Shown piece after piece: positions 11,427 through 28,856 of a DNA stretch of 29,391 nucleotides. The notes below the pieces were generated by a model that ran no database searches, was not told the DNA's origin, and saw only the letters and a program-made list of their open reading frames with translations. A program made the translations under genes and the position numbers. Origin of the DNA: Candidatus Bathyarchaeota archaeon (GTDB taxonomy: Archaea > Thermoproteota > Bathyarchaeia > TCS64). Within the stretch, counting starts at the first letter, position 1, and each line of letters begins with the position of its first letter. The DNA is taken from the NCBI GenBank assembly GCA_043826455.1, contig JBDRQD010000058.1:1-29391 (forward strand), read 5' to 3'.

Positions 11427-11503
11427 GGTGCAGCCTTCGGCTGCAGGGCATAAAATGTTGTGGGTCAGCCGAGAACCTTTTTTAATGCTGGTTCCCGATT
11501 AGG

Positions 11504-11974
11504 ATGTTGATTGTTATGAATCTTGAGATAAAGATCAAGGACCTCATGAAGAAAGAGCCTCTGATTGTGGACCCCGACGACCACCTGGCAGCCGTCTCAA
11601 AGAAGATGGCGGCTAAGGGTAAGGACGTGGTCGTGGTCATGAAGGACGGCCTTGTCAAAGGCCTAGTGACGGCCGGAGACATATTCTTCGCCATGAAGAG
11701 CTATGTCCTGGGCAAGAACTTGCTGGAGAGCATCCCCGTGGAGATACGCGACATGCGGGTGGGGGAACTCATGAAGGCGCCCCAAGCCATGGAGTTCATG
11801 GAGGCCTGCGGCCTAACAGGCACCAACATGTGCATTGTGCTGGGTGAGGAGGACACGGTGGCGGACGCCATAAGGGTCATGGCCATCGGCGGAGTGGACC
11901 ACATCCTCATCGTGGGCCAGAAGGGCATCGTGGGTACGCTGAGCGACAACGACCTGCTCAAGGCCTTCAGGTAA
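11504..11974 (+). CDS. CBS domain pair protein
   Basis: IKDLM...P..VDPDD...GLVT..DI and VGELM...EDTVADAI..M...GTLSDNDLL. Confidence 0.88.
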   Translation: MLIVMNLEIKIKDLMKKEPLIVDPDDHLAAVSKKMAAKGKDVVVVMKDGLVKGLVTAGDIFFAMKSYVLGKNLLESIPVEIRDMRVGELMKAPQAMEFMEACGLTGTNMCIVLGEEDTVADAIRVMAIGGVDHILIVGQKGIVGTLSDNDLLKAFR

Positions 11975-11990
11975 AACCCATTGTTTATCG

Positions 11991-12012
11991 ATCCCTCGTC
12001 GGGATTCTTTTT
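11991..12012 (+). terminator. Short hairpin plus T-tract after the CBS gene
   Basis: ATCCC-tcgtc-GGGAT followed by TCTTTTT. Confidence 0.35.
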
Positions 12013-12113
12013 CTAAACCACGGTGAACACGGCTCGCCAATTGAACTGGGGCCTCTAGCTCAGGCCTAAAATGTTTAAGGTTACCTCCTTCTCTAATAGT
12101 TGATTCATGGTGA

Positions 12114-13526
12114 ATGGATTTGACTGACTTCTCTGTGACCCGAGAATGGATCGAGGAAAACGTTCCAAGGTACATGCAGGAGGGCAGGATGCCCGGCTTC
12201 AGCCTAGCAGTGGTTAAGGACTGCGAAACGGTCTACGCTGAGGGCTTCGGCTCCAGGGACCCGGACAAGGGCCTGCCTGCGACGCCTGACACCCTCTACG
12301 GCATCGGCAGCATAACTAAGAGCTTCGTCGCCATCGCGGTGATGCAGCTCGTGGAGCAGGGCAAGCTCGGCGTCGAGGACCCTGTCAGCGACCACATCCC
12401 CTTCAGGCTTGGGCTGCCCGGAAACCCCATAAGAGTACACCACCTGCTGACCCACAGCCTGGGTCTGCCCAGCCTGGCCACCAGCACAGTAGCCCTGTAC
12501 AGGGGCATTGGAGCGGACACGGGTATCCCGTGGGGCGGCGTGGACGACTTCTACAGGCTTGTGAACGGGGCTCAGAGCGAGGTGCTGTTCCCCCCGGGTG
12601 AGCGGTTCTTCTATCATAACGCGGCGTGGAGGATGCTAGGTCATATAGTGCAGGAGAAGTCGGGGATGCCGTTCCACAGGTACGTCAAGGAGAAGGTGAT
12701 GAACCCCCTCGGCATGAGGAGGAGCACCATGAACATCGAGGAGTTCAACGCTGACCCCGACCACATAGTACCCCACTGGAAGAAGCCAGACGGCAGGGTG
12801 GAGCCCAGCAGGTTCCCGTACCCGAACCCGGAGGACAACCCAGAGTTCAGCTTCATCGCCGCAGCAGGGGGCATCGCCAGCAGCGTCAACGAGATGGCCG
12901 AGTACCTGAAGGCGCAGATCGACGGCGGCAGGAGCGGGGGCGGGCCGATGAGCGAGGAAAGTTTCAGGAGAGCCCACACGCTCCACGTGAGACGGCCAGA
13001 CGGATACTACGGGCTGCACGGCTACGGGTACGGCCTGGATGTCACACCCGGCTTCCTGGGCCACAATATGCTGGGGCACGGAGGAAGCATACTGGTCTCC
13101 ACGGCCTACATGGCCTTCATCCCGGACATGGGGGCAGGGGTGGTGATGATGGGTAACAGCGCCAAGCTGCCCTACGAGGAGATAGCGGAGTCCGTGTTCG
13201 CCACCATGATGGGCCGCGAGCCCTCGGAGGTGATACCGTCCATCGTGGTGAAGAACAGGATGAGTGAGCTGGCGGGCAACTATGAGATATACAGGGGCAT
13301 CGAGAAGGTGCGGGTGGTGAGGCGGGGCGGGATGCTGTACCTGGAGCAGAAGGACGAGTTCACGGACGCCCTTGTGCCTCTCATACCGGAGGACCTGACG
13401 CTGGAGTCCACGATGTTCTACGCGTTGACGGACGGAGTTAAGGCGCCTGTAGAGTTCGTGGTTCACGGTGGCGGACGTGTAGATCTTTTCGTGGAGAGGT
13501 ACTGCTACCACAAGAAGAACGTTTAA
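12114..13526 (+). CDS. Serine hydrolase, beta-lactamase/PRP family (Pab87/CubicO-like peptidase with C-terminal oligomerisation domain)
   Basis: SxxK (SITK), LLTHSLG, YxN (YHN), HGG. The C-terminal 'G.YE.YRG...V...GG.LYL...PLIPE...ERY.YHK' resembles the Pab87 octamerisation domain. Confidence 0.9.
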   Translation: MDLTDFSVTREWIEENVPRYMQEGRMPGFSLAVVKDCETVYAEGFGSRDPDKGLPATPDTLYGIGSITKSFVAIAVMQLVEQGKLGVEDPVSDHIPFRLGLPGNPIRVHHLLTHSLGLPSLATSTVALYRGIGADTGIPWGGVDDFYRLVNGAQSEVLFPPGERFFYHNAAWRMLGHIVQEKSGMPFHRYVKEKVMNPLGMRRSTMNIEEFNADPDHIVPHWKKPDGRVEPSRFPYPNPEDNPEFSFIAAAGGIASSVNEMAEYLKAQIDGGRSGGGPMSEESFRRAHTLHVRRPDGYYGLHGYGYGLDVTPGFLGHNMLGHGGSILVSTAYMAFIPDMGAGVVMMGNSAKLPYEEIAESVFATMMGREPSEVIPSIVVKNRMSELAGNYEIYRGIEKVRVVRRGGMLYLEQKDEFTDALVPLIPEDLTLESTMFYALTDGVKAPVEFVVHGGGRVDLFVERYCYHKKNV

Positions 13527-18086: not shown

Positions 18087-18144
18087 GGTGTAATCTAGCC
18101 CTGAAGCGAATATGGCTTTTATGCCCACGCGGATAACTGAAACC

Positions 18145-19041
18145 ATGGCTGACAGGCTCAAGGGCAAGGTGGCCGTGGTGACGGGCTCCGGCAGGGGCTT
18201 CGGCAGAGCCATGGCGCTGGCCTACGCATCAGAGGGTGCAAGGGTGGTCTCCGTGGCCCGAACAATTGATGAGCTGCGGCAGACGGAGGCCATGATCCGT
18301 GAGGCGGGCGGCGAAGCATACACGGTTGAGGCCGACCTGGCCACGGACGAGGGGCTCAACAGGGTCGTCGACGAGGCCCTGAGCGCCTACAGTGGCGTCG
18401 ATGTGCTGGTGAACAACGCGGCCACCAGCCCCTGGCTCACCCTGGAAGAGACAACCCTGACACACTGGGATAGAGTGATGGCTGTGAACCTACGGGCACC
18501 CTTCGCCCTCTCCAAGGTCCTAGCACCTATCATGGCTGGGCGTGGGGGTGGAGCCATCATCAACGTCAGCAGCAGGTCCGCTGAGCTCGGCTTCGTCGCC
18601 GAGACAGCCTACTGCCCCAGTAAGTACGGCCTAGAGGGCCTCACCCAGTGCCTGGCACTGGAGCTGAGGACGCGGAACATAGCCGTGAACAGCCTCAACG
18701 TGGCTGCACCGCCGGGTAAGAGGCTCAAGCCCACAGAGCTCACCATCAGGGAGGCCGAGGCTATGCCATACGATGTCAAGTCGCTCTATGCTGATGACTG
18801 GGGCATGGCTGAACACTTCCGTGATGCCTGGACCTTCCTGGCCCTGCAGGACGGCTCGGGCATCACAGGCCAGAGGCTGGGCACGGGAGAGCTGGCCAGG
18901 GTCCTCAAGGAGGAGGGCGAGGCCGCCGCCTATCACCGCTGGAGGGGCAAGCTGACCCAGGCGGTCTACACGCCCATCCCGTGGCCCGAGAAGGCGCGGT
19001 ACCAGACCCGGGAAGGGGGCTGGAGGGAGCTAGTCTTCTAG
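18145..19041 (+). CDS. SDR family NAD(P)-dependent oxidoreductase
   Basis: TGSGRGFG, LVNNAA, catalytic Ser and YCPSK. Has a C-terminal extension. Start reassigned to ATG 18145. Confidence 0.92.
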   Translation: MADRLKGKVAVVTGSGRGFGRAMALAYASEGARVVSVARTIDELRQTEAMIREAGGEAYTVEADLATDEGLNRVVDEALSAYSGVDVLVNNAATSPWLTLEETTLTHWDRVMAVNLRAPFALSKVLAPIMAGRGGGAIINVSSRSAELGFVAETAYCPSKYGLEGLTQCLALELRTRNIAVNSLNVAAPPGKRLKPTELTIREAEAMPYDVKSLYADDWGMAEHFRDAWTFLALQDGSGITGQRLGTGELARVLKEEGEAAAYHRWRGKLTQAVYTPIPWPEKARYQTREGGWRELVF

Positions 19042-20052
19042 CTCCGCCTCGATGTACGTGACCAGCTGAGAGAACCCCTCATCGCCCACCAGGTCCAGGG
19101 TCTTAAGGTTCATGCCCCTCAGGTGGGGTGATCCCAGCCCCAGCCTCACTGCGTGGCGGAACTGGTCATGCTCCTTCACGGGCCTGTCCGAGACCCTCAC
19201 TGTGTTATGGCGCCTCATGATGGCCGCGCAGACGGCGTCGCAGGCCACCATGTTGCCCCCGGCAACTATGACGCCGGGCTCCACCTCGTCTTTAGGATCG
19301 GTCCCGATGCCCGTGTTCATCCTCAGGGCGTCGGCCACCACCAGGTCAACGTTGTAGGCGGAGTTGATGTCCAGCAGCTTCCCCACGTGATGCTCCCCGT
19401 TGTGGAGCCACTCCCGGCTCCGGGCGTCTATGAGGCCGACACTCAGCTTCATGGCGCAGGTGAATGTGGCCGTGGTGTGACTCCTCAGGATGGGCGAGAA
19501 GATGACCCGCTCCGCCTCGTAGATGCGCCGCGGGATCACCAGGCCGCCGGGCCAGTACTCGGCCTCGCGGGGCCTGACCCTTACCCACTGCTCCTCCTCG
19601 AAGTAGGCCAGCTGAAGCCCCAGATCCTCAGCCGCGGCCTTGATGCCCAGGTTCTCCACGGTGGCACGGGTGGGCAGGCCCCGGGCCCTCCCCGACATGT
19701 CACCAACCACGATCCTGTCCGGCTCGACGCCCGCGTCCATGAGGGCCCTGGCGATGGCCCTAACAGTGTCCGGGTGGGTGTCCCGGGGGTACGGGTCATC
19801 AGTATTACAGTTGGGCTTGATGATGGTCTCGCCCTCGACGCCCTTGGCCATGGGCTTGAGTCCGCCCAGCAGCCTCATGGCCTCTGATATCCCCCGGCCC
19901 CGGTCACTGCACCTGACCAGCGCGACTGTGTCCCTGCCACCCACCCTGTACGGGCTCTCTCTCCCCGGCTTGACGGGGACGCTGTGCGCCTTGGGGGGGC
20001 GCTCCGCGAACTCCCTGTACAGCCTCATGGAGCCTTCCGGAGTAACTTTCAT
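19030..20052 (-). CDS. DUF362 domain-containing protein
   Basis: IKPN, THP, VGD.SG, P.L.SH....T.AMK, D/N.VA.DA motifs. Confidence 0.85.
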   Translation of the reverse strand: MKVTPEGSMRLYREFAERPPKAHSVPVKPGRESPYRVGGRDTVALVRCSDRGRGISEAMRLLGGLKPMAKGVEGETIIKPNCNTDDPYPRDTHPDTVRAIARALMDAGVEPDRIVVGDMSGRARGLPTRATVENLGIKAAAEDLGLQLAYFEEEQWVRVRPREAEYWPGGLVIPRRIYEAERVIFSPILRSHTTATFTCAMKLSVGLIDARSREWLHNGEHHVGKLLDINSAYNVDLVVADALRMNTGIGTDPKDEVEPGVIVAGGNMVACDAVCAAIMRRHNTVRVSDRPVKEHDQFRHAVRLGLGSPHLRGMNLKTLDLVGDEGFSQLVTYIEAELED

Positions 20053-21262: not shown

Positions 21263-22204
21263 CTACATCTTCCGGGGTCTCTTGGGGACGGCCAAGTCCG
21301 CTGCCCCCATCTCTGAGAGCCGTGCCTCGGGCCAGTTCTCCTCCACGATCCCTATGAGCCGTTCAGCGTACACCACCTTGTCCCGGGCCAGCTTCTCCAG
21401 TCCCGCCCCCCAAGGCTTGTAGAGGGCGCCGACGCCGGGCCCCGGCTCTATCTTGAAGTAGCAGGGAGAGCAGACCCGCGCCATCTCCGGGGTCTCGTAT
21501 ATCCTGTTGAAGCCGCCCCAGGCGTCGAAGAGCCAGACGTGGAGGTCCATGGGTATCTTGACCGCCTGCCTTATGGCTGCCAACTGTGGCAGGGTGAGGT
21601 CGCCCACGGGGTTGAAGGTGTCGGCCCCCAGCGTCTCCAGCACCTTGGCGCCCGCCGGGTTAGCGTGGCCCGCGAAGATGCTGAGCTTGAACACCACGTC
21701 TCTGGGTATCATGCCCCGCTTCCTGAGCTCGTTTACAGCGTAGAGACCGCCCTCGCCTACGACGAGGAACCCCTTGAAGCCCAGTTCGATGCAGTGGCGT
21801 ATATCGTCAACCACCTCGATGAGACCCTTCATGCCCCTGTACCTGATGCCGCATAGGCCCCCCTCCGGTGTGGCCACTTGGCGCCCCGTGTCCCACAGCG
21901 CCCTGGGGCCAGGGGTGAGGATGACCTCCAGGTCGGCGTCGTGGGCCACCTGGGCGAACTCCTCAAGCTCGCTGTCGCTGAGAAGCGTTGACCCCATCAC
22001 GGTGCTTATGAGCCTGTGGACGGGCACGTCCCGCCTGTCCATCTCGTCCACCAGGGCCCTGAGCACGGAGAGGTTCTCCACGCCAGATATCTCGATGCGG
22101 TAATTAGCCCCGTCGGGGAAGGTTGTGCTTGAGGAGGGGAGGCCGTAGGCGTCGCCCTCGGGTAGTCCTATCTCGGCCAGCATCTTGGCCGTCTCTTTAA
22201 GCAT
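21263..22204 (-). CDS. Uncharacterised TIM-barrel protein (U32-peptidase-like family)
   Basis: Pattern 'G..GFLV..EG.L', 'K.S.F....NP.....LE.LGAD..N...DL.L..LA.IR....P.D' recalls U32-like barrels. Confidence 0.6.
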   Translation of the reverse strand: MLKETAKMLAEIGLPEGDAYGLPSSSTTFPDGANYRIEISGVENLSVLRALVDEMDRRDVPVHRLISTVMGSTLLSDSELEEFAQVAHDADLEVILTPGPRALWDTGRQVATPEGGLCGIRYRGMKGLIEVVDDIRHCIELGFKGFLVVGEGGLYAVNELRKRGMIPRDVVFKLSIFAGHANPAGAKVLETLGADTFNPVGDLTLPQLAAIRQAVKIPMDLHVWLFDAWGGFNRIYETPEMARVCSPCYFKIEPGPGVGALYKPWGAGLEKLARDKVVYAERLIGIVEENWPEARLSEMGAADLAVPKRPRKM

Positions 22205-22320
22205 AGTACTCCGAGGAAATGTTTAGTCTCTGACTATTTTAAATATTCCAATTAGAATCAGGTAAGGCGCCTCTTAGAGCCTCAGACGTCGATGAATAAA
22301 GGAAAAGGTTGAGGGAGGGG

Positions 22321-23805
22321 TCACTGGCTCTCCCGGAAGGGGTGCCTGGAGCTCCGCGCGTTCTCAGCGGCCTCCCGGGCCGTGGGCCTGCCCTCCATGG
22401 CCTTCCGGATGGCGTGCCTCATGGCCTTCAGGTTGTTGATGTACACCCGTCTGCGACGCGAGGCTGAGGGGTGGACGAAGACGTTGGCTATCATCACCAG
22501 CTCATCCGTCTCGGGCAGTATGCCGTCCGCCACGGACATGGCCACGGCCTTGGCCACGGCCTCCTGGGCCGGCCCGTAGACGAAGCTGGCGTCCCTCATA
22601 CCCCTGACGGGCACCGTGGGCACTATGATGGTGGGCGGCTTCACGGCCATGTTGGGCTCCAGTATCACCTGCAGGGCCTCCCGGTCCTTGCTGGGCCTGG
22701 CTAGCGCCTCCGCGTAGGCCTTGCCCACGGGGCCGTCCACCTGGCCTATCAGCAGGTCTATGTGGGCCACCTCGTTGCTGTCGGGGTCCACTAGGGCCTC
22801 ACCTGTCCGCAGCTTGAACTGGTCTATGACAGCGGGGGTGACGTCCACCCTGTAGAACTGTTCCTTGACGGGGCCGGATGGCAGCTTGAACTCCACAGGC
22901 TTCTTGGGTATGAGGCCCAGGTTCTCCAACTCGACCCGGAACTCCTCCCTGAGCTCCCAGGTCACCGTGTCCCCAAGTACTATTGGGCGCCTGGTGGGGC
23001 CCACGTCGTGGCCCATGAAGTTGAGGCACACCTTGGGGCCCTGGGCGCCCGTGGCCACGATGTGGCGGGTGAACTTCTGGAGCCTCCACTGGACTTTTCG
23101 GGCCTCATCCAGCTTCCCTGCCTTGAACTTCTTGTAGAGGTCAAGCCAGTAGGGGGCGACCACGTTGGCTGATGCAAGGATCATGCCCTTGCAGCCCACT
23201 GCCAGGGCTGCCAGGACCACCTCGTCCCAGCCCACCACCACGTCGATCTTATCGCCCACCTTCTCCAGCACCGACATGAGGTACTTGAGGTCGCCGCTGC
23301 TGTCCTTCATGGCGCGGACCGTGCTGCACTCGTCTACTAAGTCTTCGACTACCTGCCATGGGATGTACTGGTTGGTGGCCACCGGTATGTTGTACAGGAC
23401 GAGGGGTATGTCCACGGCGCCGGCTATGCTCACATAGTGGTCGTAGATGCCCTTACCGCCCTTGGGCTTCATGTAGTAGGGGTTGACTATGATGGCGGCG
23501 TCCGCTCCCACGTCCAGGGCGTGCCTGGTGGCGTCTATGACCAGCTTGGTGGCCGTGTCCCCGGTGCCGGCTATGACCGGCACCCTGCCGTTCACCTGGT
23601 CCACGCACACCTCTATGACTCGGGCCCTCTCAGCTTGGGTCATGAGGCTAAACTCGCCCGTGGTGCCGCAGGGCACTATGCCCGTGATACCCTGCTCTAT
23701 GAGCCAGTCCACGAGGTCCCGGAACACGGGCTCGTTGAACTCCTCATGTTTGTCGAAGGGCGTGACCACTGCGGGCAGCACGCCCTCTAGTTTAAAACTT
23801 GACAT
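22321..23805 (-). CDS. Fusion protein: DapA/NAL-family class I aldolase plus C-terminal formaldehyde-activating enzyme (Fae) domain
   Basis: N-terminal part has TPF, GTTGE, PYY, YNIP and the Schiff-base KDSSGD. C-terminal part (~22324-22815) has GEALV...NEVAHIDLLIG, PN..VKP, GPAQ.AVAKAV..SVADGILP, VFVHP.A, AIRKAMEG.P, HPF, all Fae hallmarks. Confidence 0.92.
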   Translation of the reverse strand: MSSFKLEGVLPAVVTPFDKHEEFNEPVFRDLVDWLIEQGITGIVPCGTTGEFSLMTQAERARVIEVCVDQVNGRVPVIAGTGDTATKLVIDATRHALDVGADAAIIVNPYYMKPKGGKGIYDHYVSIAGAVDIPLVLYNIPVATNQYIPWQVVEDLVDECSTVRAMKDSSGDLKYLMSVLEKVGDKIDVVVGWDEVVLAALAVGCKGMILASANVVAPYWLDLYKKFKAGKLDEARKVQWRLQKFTRHIVATGAQGPKVCLNFMGHDVGPTRRPIVLGDTVTWELREEFRVELENLGLIPKKPVEFKLPSGPVKEQFYRVDVTPAVIDQFKLRTGEALVDPDSNEVAHIDLLIGQVDGPVGKAYAEALARPSKDREALQVILEPNMAVKPPTIIVPTVPVRGMRDASFVYGPAQEAVAKAVAMSVADGILPETDELVMIANVFVHPSASRRRRVYINNLKAMRHAIRKAMEGRPTAREAAENARSSRHPFRESQ

Positions 23806-23859
23806 CTCTGAGAGTTGTTAGGTTCAGCCTTTCTATAACAGTTTCCACGGGGCCAGCCG

Positions 23860-24279
23860 CTACTTGTCGGCTTTCTTGGCCGCCTCCAGCCTCTCCCTAA
23901 CCTCGTTCATGAACTCGGGGAAGTCGTACTCCTCGGCGTCGAAGGGTCCCTCCCACCACTCCACGGTGAGTATGTCCGTCTCCGGCAGCAGTATGTGGGG
24001 CACGCCCGCGGGCACGTGGAGGGGCTTCCCCTTGGTGAGAGGGTACTCCACGTTCCGGCCCTTATCCTTGAACACGTACTTGGCTTTACCATCCATGAGG
24101 ATGGAGGTCTGTTCCACCTTGTGTATGTGGTTTCCACGGTACATCCCGGCCCTGGTGTAGAGCAGCGAGTACCACTTCCCCTTGTAGGTGAAGCCTATGG
24201 CCTCGCCGACGTACTTCATCTCTCCGCCGGTCCACCTCTCATAGTCGATGACGTGCTTCTTCGTCACTTTGTCTACCAC
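23860..24279 (-). CDS. Cupin-domain protein
   Basis: RGNHIH..EQ....DG and VPAGVPH cupin metal motifs. Confidence 0.85.
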   Translation of the reverse strand: MVDKVTKKHVIDYERWTGGEMKYVGEAIGFTYKGKWYSLLYTRAGMYRGNHIHKVEQTSILMDGKAKYVFKDKGRNVEYPLTKGKPLHVPAGVPHILLPETDILTVEWWEGPFDAEEYDFPEFMNEVRERLEAAKKADK

Positions 24280-24349
24280 GGTTGGATCATGGATGATAAC
24301 CTTATTTATCAGTGCCTGTTAAAACCTAAGCCGTTCACGCGCCTCTGAG

Positions 24350-24362
24350 CATATATTATATG
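24350..24362. promoter_or_regulatory. Palindromic TATA-like element in the divergent promoter region
   Basis: CATATA-T-TATATG, about 33 nt before the TTG start of the larA-like gene. Confidence 0.4.
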
Positions 24363-24394
24363 GCTGCGTGCAATATGGGTCTTGTTGATACACT

Positions 24395-25645
24395 TTGGTT
24401 AAGGTCGATATCCCCCACCACTGCTGGTACGAGGACAAACCCCTCACCCTCACCTTCCCCGACGACTGGAAGGTCCACAGGTGCAGGGTGGCCAGCGAGG
24501 GCGCCAAGCCCATGACTGAGAAGCAGATCAAGGCAGCCATACTGAAGCCCGTAGGCCAGAGGCCGCTACCCGAACTGGCCGAGAAGGCCGAGGAGGTGGT
24601 CGTCATCTTCGACGACATGACCCGCCCAACGAAGACGTGGCAGTACACGCCCACAATCTTGGAGACCCTGCACAAGGCTGGGGTCCCGGAGGACAACATC
24701 AGGTTCATCATAGCGCCGGGCACCCACGGCACCTATGGTCGAAGAGACTTTGTGAAGAAGCTGGGCGAGGACACGGTGAGCAGGTACCAGGTCTACAACC
24801 ACAACCCCTACGAGATGCTGGACTACCTGGGGGACACCAGCCACGGCTGCCCTGTCTGGGTGAACAGCGAGGTCATGTCCTGCGACCTAAAGATAGGCGT
24901 CGGCACCGTCCTCTTCCACAGGCTCACGGGGATGAGCGGCGGAGGCAAGCTCATCAGCCCCGGCGTCGCCGGCATCGAGACCATACGGTTTAACCACGGG
25001 GAAGTGGGGGGCTTCGGCCCAGGCAGGACTCCGGACCCGTCCACCGGCTACATGGCCAACGACCAGAACAGGATGAGGCACGACGCTGAAGAGGCTGCAA
25101 GGCTGGCGGGCCTGGACTACAAGATCGACACGGTGCTGAACCTGAACAGGGACCCCCTAGAGCTGTACGCGGGGGACTTCGTGGAGACCCAGCGCCGGGC
25201 ATCCAAGGACGCCATCAGGCTGCACGCCACGGAGAGCCCCGAATCAGACATTGTGGTGGTTGGCAGCTATCACAGGGAGAACGAGCCCTACCTGGGCCTG
25301 TGGCCCGGCCTCAGCACGGTGAAGGAGGGGGGCACCCTGGTGATGGTGAATGACTGCCCAGACGGAGACATCAACCACTGGCTCTTCAACAGGCACGGCA
25401 AGACCATCGGAGCCAGCCTCTGGAACCCCAAGTCTCAGAGGTTACCCAAGGTGAGGCACATGATCATATTCGGCGAGTACCCGTTGAAGAGCTTCTTGAT
25501 GAGGTATGAGGCCGAGCAGGTAACCTGGATCAGGCGGTGGGACGAGGTGGTGGAGGAACTGAGGAACCACCACAAAGCCGGGTCGAAGGTGGCCGTCATC
25601 CCGGACGGCACCAGCTGTATACCCGAGAATACGTTGGTGAGTTAG
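24395..25645 (+). CDS. LarA-superfamily (DUF2088) nickel-pincer-dependent alpha-hydroxy acid racemase/epimerase
   Basis: DDMTRPT, GTH, NH, LG.TS.G.PV.VN, FH..GMSGGGK...PGVAG.ETI..NH, VKEGGTLV...CPDG. Confidence 0.88.
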   Translation: MVKVDIPHHCWYEDKPLTLTFPDDWKVHRCRVASEGAKPMTEKQIKAAILKPVGQRPLPELAEKAEEVVVIFDDMTRPTKTWQYTPTILETLHKAGVPEDNIRFIIAPGTHGTYGRRDFVKKLGEDTVSRYQVYNHNPYEMLDYLGDTSHGCPVWVNSEVMSCDLKIGVGTVLFHRLTGMSGGGKLISPGVAGIETIRFNHGEVGGFGPGRTPDPSTGYMANDQNRMRHDAEEAARLAGLDYKIDTVLNLNRDPLELYAGDFVETQRRASKDAIRLHATESPESDIVVVGSYHRENEPYLGLWPGLSTVKEGGTLVMVNDCPDGDINHWLFNRHGKTIGASLWNPKSQRLPKVRHMIIFGEYPLKSFLMRYEAEQVTWIRRWDEVVEELRNHHKAGSKVAVIPDGTSCIPENTLVS

Positions 25646-25960
25646 ATGAAGAAGGCGATACAGATAGACGACAAGGACAACGTGGCCACGGCCACCGGCG
25701 ACGTGAAGAAAGGGGAGCAGGTGGAGATACTGTCCCCTGAGGGCAAGGTCATCCTCAAGGCTAAGCCTGTGGACGACATAGCCTTCGGCCACAAGCTGAG
25801 CCTCAGAAGGATCAAGATGGGTGAGGAGATCATCAAGTATGGTGAGGTGATAGGGGTCGCCTCCAGGGCGATCCCCGCCGGCGAGTGGGTTCACACCCAC
25901 AACGTGGACAGCGCCAGGCTCAAGACCTCCGGTGAGGAGGTCAGGGGGGTGACTGTGTGA
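25646..25960 (+). CDS. UxaA-family dehydratase/lyase small (SAF) subunit
   Basis: DNVATA, I.FGHK.SL..I..GEEIIKYGEVIG.A...I..GEWVHTHNV. Confidence 0.92.
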   Translation: MKKAIQIDDKDNVATATGDVKKGEQVEILSPEGKVILKAKPVDDIAFGHKLSLRRIKMGEEIIKYGEVIGVASRAIPAGEWVHTHNVDSARLKTSGEEVRGVTV

Positions 25961-27132
25961 CCGAGTTCCTCGGATACCAGAGGCCCGACGGCTCAGTGGG
26001 TGTACGGAACCACCTTCTGGTAATAGCGCCCATTGATTGCAGCTACGAGCCCGCTAAGAAGATCGCGGACCAGGTGCCTGGCGCCGTGGCCATCACCCAG
26101 ACCCACGGCTGCGGGGCCGACGCTATGCTGATCCACAACCTGGTGGGCACAGCGCTAAACCCCAACGTGGCGGGCGTCCTCATCGTCGGCCTAGGCTGCG
26201 AGACCCTCACCGGGGAGATGCTCATGGAGCAGATAGAGCCAAGTGGTAAACCTGTACACAACATCACCATACAGGAGCTCGGCGGCACCCTTAAGACCCA
26301 TGAGAGGGGCGTCAGGCTCCTCCAGGAGATGGCGCAGAACGCGGCGAAGCTGAGGCGTGAGCCCTTCCCCCTGAGCAAGTTGACCCTGGCCGTGGAGTGC
26401 GGGGGCAGCGACGCCACCAGCGGACTGGCCGCCAACCCGGCCGTCGGCGTGGCGGCCGATCTACTCATCGAGGAAGGAGGCAGCGTCATCTTCGGGGAGA
26501 CCCAGGAGATGAGCGGCACCCAGCACCTGCTGGCGCGCCGGGCCGTCAACGACCGGGTGGCCAAGGACGTCTACACCATCATTGAGGCCCAGGAGCACAG
26601 GCTAAAAGCCATGGGGGTAGACAGCCGCTGGATGAGCAAGGGCAACATAGACGGCGGCCTCACCACCATAGAGGAGAAGAGCCTGGGAGCCGTGCGCAAG
26701 GGGGGCACCAAACCCATCCAGGGGGTACTCTTCAATGACTGGGACAGGTTCGACAAGCCTTCCAAGCCTGGCCTGTACATCATGGACGGTACGGGCTGGG
26801 ACGTGCCCAGCGTCACCCACATGGTGGCCGCCGGGGCCCAGGTTGTGTGCTTCACCAGCGGCGCGGGCAGCACCACGGGCCACGCCATCGCTCCAGTCAT
26901 CAAGGTGACTGGGAATCCCCAGACCTATGTTAGGATGACTGACAACATGGACGTCAACGCCGGTACAATCCTGGACGGCTCGGAGAGCCTCAACAGCGTC
27001 GGCCGGAGAATCTTCCAGATGATGGTGGACACCGCAAACGGCAGGCTTACGAAGGCCGAGGCCCTGGGCTACCACGACTACATAGTGTTCAAGAGGAGCA
27101 GAGAAGCCGAGCACCTCCTCGGCCACTGCTGA
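25957..27132 (+). CDS. UxaA/GarD/SuyB-family dehydratase large subunit
   Basis: GY.RPDGSVGVRNH, HGC, GLGCE, ECGGSDATSGLAANPAVG, GNIDGGLTTIEEKSLGA..KGG, APVIKVTGN, MDVNAG. Confidence 0.93.
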   Translation: MTEFLGYQRPDGSVGVRNHLLVIAPIDCSYEPAKKIADQVPGAVAITQTHGCGADAMLIHNLVGTALNPNVAGVLIVGLGCETLTGEMLMEQIEPSGKPVHNITIQELGGTLKTHERGVRLLQEMAQNAAKLRREPFPLSKLTLAVECGGSDATSGLAANPAVGVAADLLIEEGGSVIFGETQEMSGTQHLLARRAVNDRVAKDVYTIIEAQEHRLKAMGVDSRWMSKGNIDGGLTTIEEKSLGAVRKGGTKPIQGVLFNDWDRFDKPSKPGLYIMDGTGWDVPSVTHMVAAGAQVVCFTSGAGSTTGHAIAPVIKVTGNPQTYVRMTDNMDVNAGTILDGSESLNSVGRRIFQMMVDTANGRLTKAEALGYHDYIVFKRSREAEHLLGHC

Positions 27133-27459: not shown

Positions 27460-27933
27460 TTACATCTCCTTGAGTACTACGTCGTCGTACTCCTTCTCCA
27501 GCAGGTATTTGTGGCGCAGCTCCTCCTTGGCGAAGTTGTTGAGGAACTCGCTCAGCTCCGTCCCCTTGAACCTGCGGGCCACCTCCACGTAGAAGTCGTG
27601 GGTTGCCTTCTCCCGCTGGGCCGCGAAGACCAGGATGGCGGGGTAGTCGGCCATGGGGTCCAGGGGCACCTTTACCAGCTGGTCCGTGATCTTCAGGTCG
27701 GGGATGCTCTCCTTGATGGTCCTCATCTTCAGGTGTTTGGGGTCCTTGAGCCCTTTGAGGAAGTACTCCCGGTGCCGCTTCTCGTCTGCGGCCAGCTCGG
27801 AGAGCATCTTCTTAGCCCCCGGGTATGTGGACTTCGCGGCAGTCTCGGTGTAGAGGGTGTAGCTCTCCAGCTCCATCTCGGCTCCGATATGGAGCACCTT
27901 CTCGATGGTCCAGTCCTTGATCTCCATAAGCAT
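27460..27933 (-). CDS. Ferritin-like / rubrerythrin-family di-iron protein
   Basis: Duplicated E...ExxH (ELESY..DEKRH; REKA..EELRH). No rubredoxin domain. Confidence 0.9.
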   Translation of the reverse strand: MLMEIKDWTIEKVLHIGAEMELESYTLYTETAAKSTYPGAKKMLSELAADEKRHREYFLKGLKDPKHLKMRTIKESIPDLKITDQLVKVPLDPMADYPAILVFAAQREKATHDFYVEVARRFKGTELSEFLNNFAKEELRHKYLLEKEYDDVVLKEM

Positions 27934-28010
27934 CAAGGTACGTCACAGATCGGCGAGATATAAGATTTAACCGGTAAAGCGTATAAGCCACCGCGGCTGT
28001 GAAAATCTGT

Positions 28011-28856
28011 ATGAAGCCCACGGGCACTGTCAATGTGGAGATCATCGCCACCGGCGACGAACTCATGTACGGCAGAATAATGGACACCAACAGCCACTGG
28101 ATAGCCCAGCGCGTCGCCGAGCTGGGCGCCAAGCTGCGGCGCGTCACCATGATCGGCGACGAGCCCGAGACCATAGCCGCGGCCCTCCACGACGCCCTGA
28201 AACGGGACGCCCACTTCATCATCTTCACAGGCGGCCTGGGCCCCAGCGAGGACGACCTCACCGTGGACAGCATAGGGGCAGCCTTGGGGAGGGGGACCGT
28301 CATAGATGCCGCGGGCGCCCAGAAGATCAGGGAGGTCTACGTCAGGAGGGGCATAACCGACGAGGCCGCCTTCAAGCGGGGCGAGCGCATGGCCAGGGTG
28401 CTGGAGAACAGTGAGCCCCTGCAGAACCCCGTGGGCTTCGCCGTGGGCATGTGCGTCGAGGAAGCCGGAAAACGGATTTGCACCTTCCCGGGGGTCCCCG
28501 CCGAGATGAAGGGAATGTTCGACGCCCACCTGGCCCCCATGATCCAGAGCAGAGCCTCCAGCGTTTTCCTGGCCCGGGCCTACAACGTCACCATGGTGTG
28601 GAAGGACTTCTTCCCCCTCTACACCCAGATGCAGAAGGACTACCCGGATGTATACATAAAGAACGCCGCCACGCCCCCAGTGGAGGGGGAGGACCGCAAC
28701 AAGCCCCACACCATCAAGGTGGACCTGGTGCTGGAAGGTAAGACCCATGAGGAGGCGGAGTCCAAGATGGACGCCCTGATAGACGACTACCTCAAGCGTA
28801 TTGAGGTGGCGGGTGGCGGAAGAATGGCTCCCATAACCGGCGGCGGACAGGCATAA
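28011..28856 (+). CDS. CinA N-terminal-like molybdopterin-binding domain protein
   Basis: GDEL..G.I.DTN, GDE...I, TGGLGP..DDLT, NPVG.A.G, PGVP.EMK. Confidence 0.88.
   Translation: MKPTGTVNVEIIATGDELMYGRIMDTNSHWIAQRVAELGAKLRRVTMIGDEPETIAAALHDALKRDAHFIIFTGGLGPSEDDLTVDSIGAALGRGTVIDAAGAQKIREVYVRRGITDEAAFKRGERMARVLENSEPLQNPVGFAVGMCVEEAGKRICTFPGVPAEMKGMFDAHLAPMIQSRASSVFLARAYNVTMVWKDFFPLYTQMQKDYPDVYIKNAATPPVEGEDRNKPHTIKVDLVLEGKTHEEAESKMDALIDDYLKRIEVAGGGRMAPITGGGQA

Follow-up and report, generated by a model that had tools for sequence, protein, structure and literature searches.

Do the divergent genes that lie back to back on one archaeal contig form a single pathway, or have two gene sets of different origin come to rest side by side? 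The question is raised by a stretch of 29,391 nucleotides from Candidatus Bathyarchaeota archaeon (contig JBDRQD010000058.1), called here the window, in which a gene that fuses an aldolase to a formaldehyde-activating enzyme (Fae) is read away from genes for a LarA-like protein and a two-subunit dehydratase of the UxaA family (UxaS and UxaL). The reading we favor, with even confidence, is that the span consists of two gene sets of separate histories placed back to back, any hand-off of a metabolite between them being facultative at most. The features concerned are as follows.

21263-22204, minus strand: orf313 (P0246), 313 amino acids (aa), 116 nt downstream of the fusion on the same strand
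22321-23805, minus strand: aldolase-Fae fusion (P0001), 494 aa, DHDPS and Fae domains in one open reading frame (ORF)
~22906-23790, minus strand: aldolase domain of the fusion (DHDPS-family, class I), residues ~6-300
22336-22809, minus strand: Fae domain of the fusion, residues ~333-490
23860-24279, minus strand: small cupin-like protein (P0005), 139 aa, on the same strand as the fusion and 54 nt upstream of it
24280-24394, no strand: divergent intergenic region, 115 nt, with two A/T-rich boxes at ~24294-24312 and ~24351-24362
24395-25645, plus strand: LarA-like homolog of 2-hydroxy-acid racemases/epimerases (P0002), 416 aa, TTG start, Lar_N 185 bits
25646-25960, plus strand: UxaS, small subunit of a UxaA-family dehydratase (P0003), 104 aa, SAF 39.7 bits
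25957-27132, plus strand: UxaL, large subunit of a UxaA-family dehydratase (P0004), 391 aa, GD_AH_second 116 and GD_AH_C 293 bits

The first set would consist of the cupin-like gene, the fusion and orf313 (minus strand, 21263-24279) and appears to be the local form of a widespread, unstudied module. Its core would be a Schiff-base pyruvate aldolase, derived from DapA and joined to a formaldehyde-activating enzyme. By analogy with Fae-Hps, the fusion most likely interconverts 4-hydroxy-2-oxobutanoate (HOB) with pyruvate and formaldehyde, the fused Fae domain implying formaldehyde as the aldehyde, and the formaldehyde would pass to or from tetrahydromethanopterin (H4MPT). The second set, made up of the LarA-like gene and the two dehydratase genes (plus strand, 24395-27132), most likely converts a small 2,3-dihydroxy acid, in either C2 configuration, to a 2-oxo acid. 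The simplest chemical link between them would be a hand-off from set 2 to set 1, in which a tetronate yields HOB and then pyruvate and a one-carbon (C1) unit.

The initial annotation, which joined five of these genes in one pathway, described their domains and spacings as we find them: the ORF coordinates give a 115-nt divergent gap, a 0-nt gap and a 4-nt overlap, and Pfam agrees on the families, with DHDPS, Fae, Lar_N, SAF and GD_AH_second/GD_AH_C all found. Orf313 lies outside the interval that it covered.

The distribution of the two sets was followed in a class-wide census of 301 Bathyarchaeia genomes; the window's family is represented by 71 genomes, 70 besides the window's own. UxaL orthologs were counted at 66% identity or more, and orf313 class-wide at E ≤ 1e-40. 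The window's genome, G000, is an assembly of 2.95 Mb in 81 contigs, the window lying on contig C58, and is rated 97.66% complete with 7.21% contamination. Here G labels denote genomes and L labels the loci (contig stretches) compared with the window. The fusion occurs in 91 of the 301 genomes and UxaL in 67; both are found in 36, UxaL alone in 31 and the fusion alone in 55. Of the 31 other genomes in the genus, 30 have a UxaL ortholog, as have 59 of the 70 in the family. Neither gene set depends on the other. Among the 36 genomes with both, the fusion and UxaL lie on one contig at most 6 kb apart in 10.

Of these 10 adjacent cases, eight belong to a subclade within the window's genus, and the remaining two, G176 and G292, to another family, f30. 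A relative from the genus, G126, has the backbone of SDR, DUF362, LarA, UxaS and UxaL genes without set 1 (L086) and carries its fusion elsewhere, beside a gene for a ~428-aa protein (L011), which indicates that in one subclade set 1 was inserted beside LarA. In f30, the fusion is 53% and UxaL 67% identical to those of the window; no ortholog of the window LarA was found there, the best match being 38% identical. In G292, the UxaS-UxaL pair sits between the fusion and orf313, in an interval that also holds an inositol-phosphate-synthase-like gene and a ferredoxin and aldehyde:ferredoxin oxidoreductase pair; its relatives G137 and G206 have the fusion and orf313 immediately next to each other in divergent orientation. 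A FastTree phylogeny was built from 106 distinct fusion loci, some of them hand-picked. The UxaL-adjacent members lie in two places well apart on the tree, between which well-supported branches require no fewer than two origins. The adjacency of fusion and UxaL arose independently at least twice.

Because the first juxtaposition was the reason for picking the window, only the second counts as independent evidence, and it is the second that lends weight to a hand-off. As it lacks LarA, a transfer from dehydratase to aldolase (tetronate to HOB) is still plausible, if doubtful, and the LarA step is its weakest part. The synteny initially expected beyond this genome is thus real in 10 of 36 genomes, with at least two origins, and incomplete in that the sets are separable.

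The UxaA and LarA genes had been taken for the companions of the fusion; its commonest neighbors are instead two uncharacterized barrel proteins. Relatives of the fusion, 261 in all, were found by scanning contigs of one genome per species, and 80 loci were kept, with at least 3 kb of flank upstream in 58 and downstream in 59. Neighbor clustering places the ~428-aa protein immediately next to the fusion in 55 of the 80. Matches to the window's proteins in these 80 loci number seven for LarA (one of them a 39-residue edge fragment), six for UxaL, three for the cupin-like protein and three for orf313, and in all such loci the fusion is at least 84% identical to the window's. A tally of neighbors within 8 kb in the 106 loci gave 66 with the ~428-aa gene, 6 with orf313 alone, 9 with UxaL and 24 with none of the three; as the loci are partly hand-picked, these proportions are not population estimates. 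The 66 loci cover Asgard archaea and several Bathyarchaeia lineages (for example L036:8679-9965). Of 20 loci from the more remote Bathyarchaeia fusion clades, 12 have the ~428-aa gene within ~3.7 kb of the fusion (including one partial match and one contig-edge fragment), four have an orf313 homolog adjacent to it and none has UxaL. The ~428-aa protein has no Pfam or NCBIfam match and was not found in G000 with Asgard and Bathyarchaeia sequences as queries.

Orf313 is present in 50 of the 301 genomes, 31 of which also have the fusion; the two genes are at most 1.2 kb apart in 13 of the 31, from five families, and one more pair is separated by 5.9 kb. By these tallies, orf313 is the window gene most consistently tied to the fusion. 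The protein has no Pfam, NCBIfam or PDB sequence match of its own. Peptidase_U32 is matched by three of six homologs (best E 2.8e-4), the window protein itself being unmatched, and Atlas likewise leads to Peptidase_U32. An AF2 model (pLDDT 68.6, pTM 0.75) has the alternating strands and helices of a (beta/alpha)8 barrel, and Foldseek searches with it returned generic TIM barrels, class II aldolases at the top with TM scores of ~0.45-0.53. Homologs number 1677 at E ≤ 1e-10, all named "hypothetical protein" wherever a source gives a name, and Chloroflexota and Anaerolineae are among their labels. When the profile of orf313 was compared with that of the ~428-aa family, the probability was 58% (E 9.8e-5, 181 columns).

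The third member of set 1 was initially called a cupin. It is a conserved gene beside the fusion, kept at 80-97% identity in three related loci and adjoining the fusion in L002/L138, L004 and L009/L140, but the family name is less secure: Cupin_2 scores 24 bits, below the cut-off of 27.2, and PDB matches to the cupins Cap5F, FdtA and OxdC are marginal (E 0.02-0.15, best 0.021). In L140, no LarA match was seen in the 1.1 kb past the cupin-like gene.

The fusion gene is widespread in Bathyarchaeia and Asgard archaea and has gone unstudied. Both domains are present in all 119 listed matches besides the query, whose source labels are Bathyarchaeia, Promethearchaeota, Hodarchaeales and Odinarchaeota, and whose database names are mostly DapA (4-hydroxy-tetrahydrodipicolinate synthase) and sometimes Fae. 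A literature search found no paper on a Fae-DHDPS/DapA fusion, also when combined with tetrahydromethanopterin. Some source labels look wrong. A 99%-identical, Bathyarchaeia-type contig (L002, DATKWY010000335.1) is filed as "Candidatus Desulfaltia sp.", a bacterial genus, and L050 and L025 are filed under Nanopelagicaceae and Undinarchaeota though their fusions group with Promethearchaeota-labelled ones. Tandem pairs of fusions, 46-47% identical to the window's, occur in G015 (L121:6027-8920), G057 and G051; in L121 an orf313 homolog comes after the tandem.

In Pfam, the fusion scores 231 bits for DHDPS (PF00701) and 159 bits for Fae (PF08714). Among the five window proteins, its Fae domain alone falls in a characterized NCBIfam equivalog (TIGR03126, 166.7 bits, above the cut-off of 118.05). 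The Fae half aligns end to end with Fae of M. extorquens (1y5y, residues 5-166, E 1.7e-27), its AHIDL motif is intact ("evahidl" is identical to 1y5y), and it is the sole Fae match in G000. The aldolase half retains the Schiff-base Lys167, Tyr138 and Thr49/50 (the TTGE threonines) of solved DHDPS enzymes, and K167, Y138 and T49 are invariant across 13 aligned fusions. Where the DHDPS structures 2vc6 and 6xgs read ynipgrs, the fusion reads YNIPVAT, so that Ala143 replaces Arg; the 13 aligned fusions have A, T, C or V at this position, and none has Arg. We take the arginine to be Arg138 in E. coli DapA numbering, presumably the residue that binds aspartate semialdehyde. Judged by these residues, the aldolase is a DapA derivative without DapA's substrate arginine, and is not DapA.

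In set 2, the domains of the UxaA/GarD family, SAF, GD_AH_second and GD_AH_C, are all present, split over two genes. UxaS matches the N-terminal 79 positions of the galactarate dehydratase model TIGR03248 and UxaL aligns to residues 123-517 of GarD (6u7l, E 1.2e-52), but UxaL scores 211.2 bits against TIGR03248, below the cut-off of 730.85. Twenty loci centered on UxaL were compared, most picked away from the fusion. UxaS immediately precedes UxaL in all 20, and LarA is directly adjacent to UxaS in 14, 2.4-5 kb off in three and absent in three. The order LarA, UxaS, UxaL, (rubrerythrin), MoCF-domain gene recurs across genera; the usual genes after UxaL are those for rubrerythrin, a MoCF-domain protein (near UxaL in 15 of the 20) and a class II tRNA synthetase. 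Whether or not the fusion is present, the LarA-like, UxaS and UxaL genes form a block that is conserved in the window's family. SDR and DUF362 genes at 18112-20052 of the window are part of the same backbone; in L012/L141 and L100 they are found next to the fusion. The DUF362 family shares its Pfam clan with the N-terminal domain of LarA, according to the parts of PMC11770544 used here. Further along the window, a 271-aa minus-strand ORF (27933-28748) overlaps a plus-strand ORF (27999-28856) that matches MoCF_biosynth with 118 bits; the former is probably spurious, since only the plus-strand ORF has a family.

Other genes accompany this block in individual loci. L091, from a genus-2 genome, has a free-standing DHDPS-family gene of 302 aa in the interval between UxaS and LarA (11432-12340), and a xylose-isomerase-like TIM-barrel gene (AP_endonuc_2) is found just upstream of LarA (L091:13908-14735). 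A 199-aa SIS-domain gene of the sugar isomerase type adjoins UxaL in two relatives from the genus, at L100 (7391-7990) and L101 (8529-9128), with a fusion nearby in both; that of L101 is co-oriented with UxaL, and the gene is not in the window.

The LarA-like protein is a member, by its domain and residue equivalents, of the LarA superfamily dependent on the nickel-pincer nucleotide (NPN). It has the same residues as Mar2 (6d6z) at the Arg of DxTRP, the His of G-x-H, the His before GxSGGxK, the Lys of that motif and the His of NH. In our own mapping, these five would correspond to R75, H108, H174, K184 and H200 of LarA (Mar2 numbering is slightly different), for which roles are given in the consulted portions of PMC11770544. 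Its best NCBIfam model is the malate racemase (MAR) LarAH6, with 206.6 bits vs a cut-off of 500. It scores 176.5/460 with the LarA model, 171.7/462 with LarAH5, and 173.1/540 and 49.7/740 with others, and thus lies below every tested equivalog cut-off (LarA, MAR LarAH5/6, LarAH10, LarAH14-16). Over the C-terminal 105 residues, sequence comparison gave no match to a solved LarA. A reading of the LarA substrate signature (equivalents of F175, F176, W358 and T359) was abandoned as unreadable: "H-R-L" after the second catalytic His alone could be read, and no assignment was made.

The cofactor genes larBCE, which were expected elsewhere in the genome, did not appear. LarC (PF01969) was not found in G000, and the LarB and LarE matches, at 48.4 bits vs a cut-off of 175 and 49.9 bits vs 150, are far below. 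Within the family, LarC is present in 6 of 71 genomes, and 3 of 71 have a LarB above its cut-off. LarA-like genes of the P0002 type are nonetheless present in 66 of the 71, often with two to four matches each, and in all 18 of the high-quality genomes, and 44 of 71 have a LarAH group 22 match above the cut-off. This leaves two options: the family has another way to make the nickel-pincer cofactor, or its LarA-type enzymes use something else. G000 has three LarA-type genes in total, i.e. that of the window, a group 22 gene on contig C2 and a further one on contig C15 (123226-124422), 37% identical to the window's.

The A/T-rich boxes in the region between the sets (24280-24394) may be promoters; the one ahead of LarA (GAGCATATATTATATGG) is almost identical in L138 and L137. 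Comparison of the spacers showed no operator common to the window clade and the f30 fusion-UxaS spacers. The sediment RNA library X21 contains contigs of a 90-95% relative that map to orf313, LarA, UxaL, the LarA/UxaS junction and the Fae portion of the fusion, with 23813-24415 left uncovered; library X22 gives three short contigs and X23 none. This hints weakly at transcription of the genes concerned, and assembled RNA contigs cannot show levels, single transcripts or co-regulation.

First among the alternatives to two separate sets is the full linear pathway originally proposed, in which LarA would epimerize D-erythronate and D-threonate, UxaSL would dehydrate the tetronate to HOB, the aldolase would cleave HOB to pyruvate and formaldehyde, and Fae would deliver the latter to H4MPT and the Wood-Ljungdahl methyl branch. 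In some Bathyarchaeia this would be a natural non-phosphorylative C4 route, in which the fusion and its barrel enzyme yield pyruvate and methylene-H4MPT and LarA-type enzymes work without the LarB/LarC machinery; we consider it rather unlikely. Its chemistry holds, in that only a C4 2-keto-3-deoxy acid gives formaldehyde and pyruvate. So does its stereochemistry: D-threonate was said to share the C2/C3 configuration of D-altronate, and both have the (2S,3R) pattern in the sections of PMC10079672 drawn on here. LarA-family enzymes epimerize 4-deoxy-threonate/erythronate (2,3-dihydroxybutyrates), glycerate and 2,4-dihydroxybutyrate, as stated in passages of PMC11770544. Part of the synteny also agrees, the fusion and UxaSL being divergent neighbors in two independent lineages and a DHDPS-family gene standing between UxaS and LarA in L091, and the H4MPT enzymes Mch and Mer are present in G000. 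Literature searches turned up no natural route through a tetronate dehydratase. Against it, 31 of the 67 UxaL genomes lack the fusion and 55 of the 91 fusion genomes lack UxaL; the family is nearly devoid of LarB and LarC, LarC being absent from the matches in G000 itself; and the second juxtaposition occurs without an ortholog of the window LarA. Moreover, when Ec.UxaA was screened on D-threonate, only two AraD enzymes were significantly active in the part of the screen consulted (PMC10079672).

A further gene cluster in G000 bears on this pathway from both sides. A three-gene operon on contig C2 (L144:4610-8158, minus strand) encodes a DtnK-like DUF1537 kinase (NF047819, 278 bits vs a cut-off of 450), a PdxA-family dehydrogenase (TIGR00557, 350 bits vs 290) and a LarAH group 22 "NPN-dependent isomerase" (NF052515, 540 bits vs 400), and resembles a kinase-type route for C4 acid sugars that includes a LarA-type isomerase of its own. 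The pair of DtnK and PdxA2 is said to form a kinase-dependent tetronate route in work of 2016 by Zhang and colleagues. The operon suggests that C4 acid sugars are substrates for the organism, but the LarA-type enzyme that is paired with a C4 acid-sugar kinase differs from the window gene. A literature search on DUF1537 and LarA found nothing relevant.

It is also conceivable, although unlikely, that the LarA-like protein and UxaSL act on a C3 or C4 acid such as glycerate or the tartrate isomers, giving pyruvate or oxaloacetate, with a tie to the aldolase through pyruvate or none at all. The split two-subunit form is common to SuyAB, an enzyme of a C3 acid, and in most genomes of the family set 2 stands among housekeeping genes with no transporter adjacent. 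The best model for the window's LarA-like protein is a malate racemase; malate racemases also epimerize tartrate, and one LarAH is glycerate-specific (PMC11770544, in the portions used). Such a pair would be similar to LarAH group 5 (Mar1), for which 19 COG2721 genes are listed beside 15 LarAH genes, together with TctA/TctC transporters (PMC7583248). The MAR model is nevertheless matched at less than half of its cut-off (206.6 vs 500), the MAR signature residues are not readable in a protein whose C-terminal domain aligns to no solved LarA, and the placement of UxaSL between the fusion and orf313 in G292 is left unexplained.

That UxaS and UxaL are a SuyAB-type (2R)-sulfolactate sulfo-lyase, and the LarA-like protein a sulfolactate racemase, is very improbable. 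The two-subunit architecture is as in SuyAB, but no DsrA-type sulfite reductase was found in G000 (best match 20 bits), no sulfonate-related neighbor was seen in the nine UxaL loci that were Pfam-scanned out of the 20 fetched, and no SuyAB-specific NCBIfam model matched the window proteins. Sulfite respiration as a context for SuyAB was rejected as well: the search of G000 gave no DsrA, and the "Candidatus Desulfaltia" label that had prompted the idea is that of a bacterial genus. Scarcely credible is the notion that the fusion is no more than the DapA of this organism with an added Fae domain, which its source names and a TIGR00674 score of 202 bits, narrowly under the cut-off of 206.15, might suggest, and which was rejected on that sub-threshold score, the Ala at the Arg138 position, the four further DHDPS-family genes of G000 and the patchy presence of the fusion in only 15 of 31 genus genomes.

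Several points weigh against two sets of separate history with set 1 acting on HOB. i) The tallies of fusion, UxaL and orf313 over the 301 genomes were counted by hand. ii) The census genomes are metagenome-assembled and 58-100% complete, so that gaps in assembly account for some of the "absent" genes; in G144, for instance, orf313 lies at a contig end, and so does LarA. iii) HOB, formaldehyde and the substrate of the dehydratase are all inferred. iv) The fusion is patchy even among close relatives (91 of 301 genomes, 15 of 31 in the genus), and G000 carries a normal homoserine dehydrogenase, so that a role of the fusion in homoserine supply is not required there. v) The assignment of orf313 as a U32-like (beta/alpha)8 barrel is held with moderate confidence, as is its model (pLDDT 68.6), and its homology to the ~428-aa family appears marginal at the profile level. 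vi) Both juxtapositions could still be chance; conversely, a hand-off between the sets, if real, argues against regarding them as separate modules.

With two sets placed back to back as the preferred reading, what is new here is the twice-evolved adjacency of the dehydratase, the alternative partner orf313 and the pattern of LarA without LarBC. The aldolase-Fae fusion is common in two archaeal groups that are central to sediment carbon cycling and to ideas on the origin of eukaryotes. If the proposed activity is correct, a pyruvate/formaldehyde aldolase wired to H4MPT would be the natural version of a reaction so far found in designed C1 pathways, and a dehydratase that has twice moved beside the fusion names a candidate source of its substrate. 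A second barrel partner, orf313, takes the place of the ~428-aa protein in several lineages. One to four LarA-type genes, among them a curated "NPN-dependent isomerase" equivalog, are kept by an entire archaeal family that mostly lacks LarB and LarC.

Known systems resemble parts of this arrangement. The engineered conversion of D-threonate to 2-oxo-4-hydroxybutyrate, with aldolases acting on pyruvate and formaldehyde, comprises the same two steps as the proposed link (Frazao et al. 2023, PMC10079672, in the parts consulted); it differs in being part of designed pathways with promiscuous AraD dehydratases and class II aldolases, and our literature search found no natural counterpart. Kinase-dependent tetronate routes (LtnD/DenD, OtnI, OtnK, OtnC) have the same proposed C4 acid-sugar substrates, and the relevant sections of PMC12994016 describe only such oxidative, kinase-dependent routes. 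These oxidize and phosphorylate the tetronate and end in DHAP (dihydroxyacetone phosphate), whereas the route considered here would dehydrate it and cleave the product to pyruvate and C1. LarAH group 5 (Mar1 of Desulfitobacterium hafniense) has a LarA homolog beside COG2721 altronate-dehydratase genes, as does the window (Desguin et al. 2020, PMC7583248); unlike there, the window has no Tct transporters, the host lacks LarB and LarC, and the LarA-like protein reaches 171.7 bits vs the LarAH5 cut-off of 462. A literature search on LarA with UxaA returned unrelated papers only.

On the aldolase side, YagE and YjhH of E. coli and the archaeal KDG (2-keto-3-deoxygluconate) aldolase share the fold and Schiff-base residues of the fusion (PDB match to YagE, E 1.4e-33), and the logic of a dehydratase followed by an aldolase is the same as that proposed here. 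The fusion differs in that it is closest to true DapA (Arch_KDGaldase 97.6 bits vs a cut-off of 390) and carries a Fae domain. The nearest analog of the whole fusion is Fae-Hps of methanogens (NF009833), in which the partner of Fae is Hps and not, as here, a DHDPS-family class I pyruvate aldolase. The fusion scores 129 bits against that model, with a cut-off of 274, and the match is to its Fae half (fusion residues 333-489, profile positions 3-160 of 392); like the fusion, Fae-Hps joins Fae to an aldolase that handles formaldehyde.

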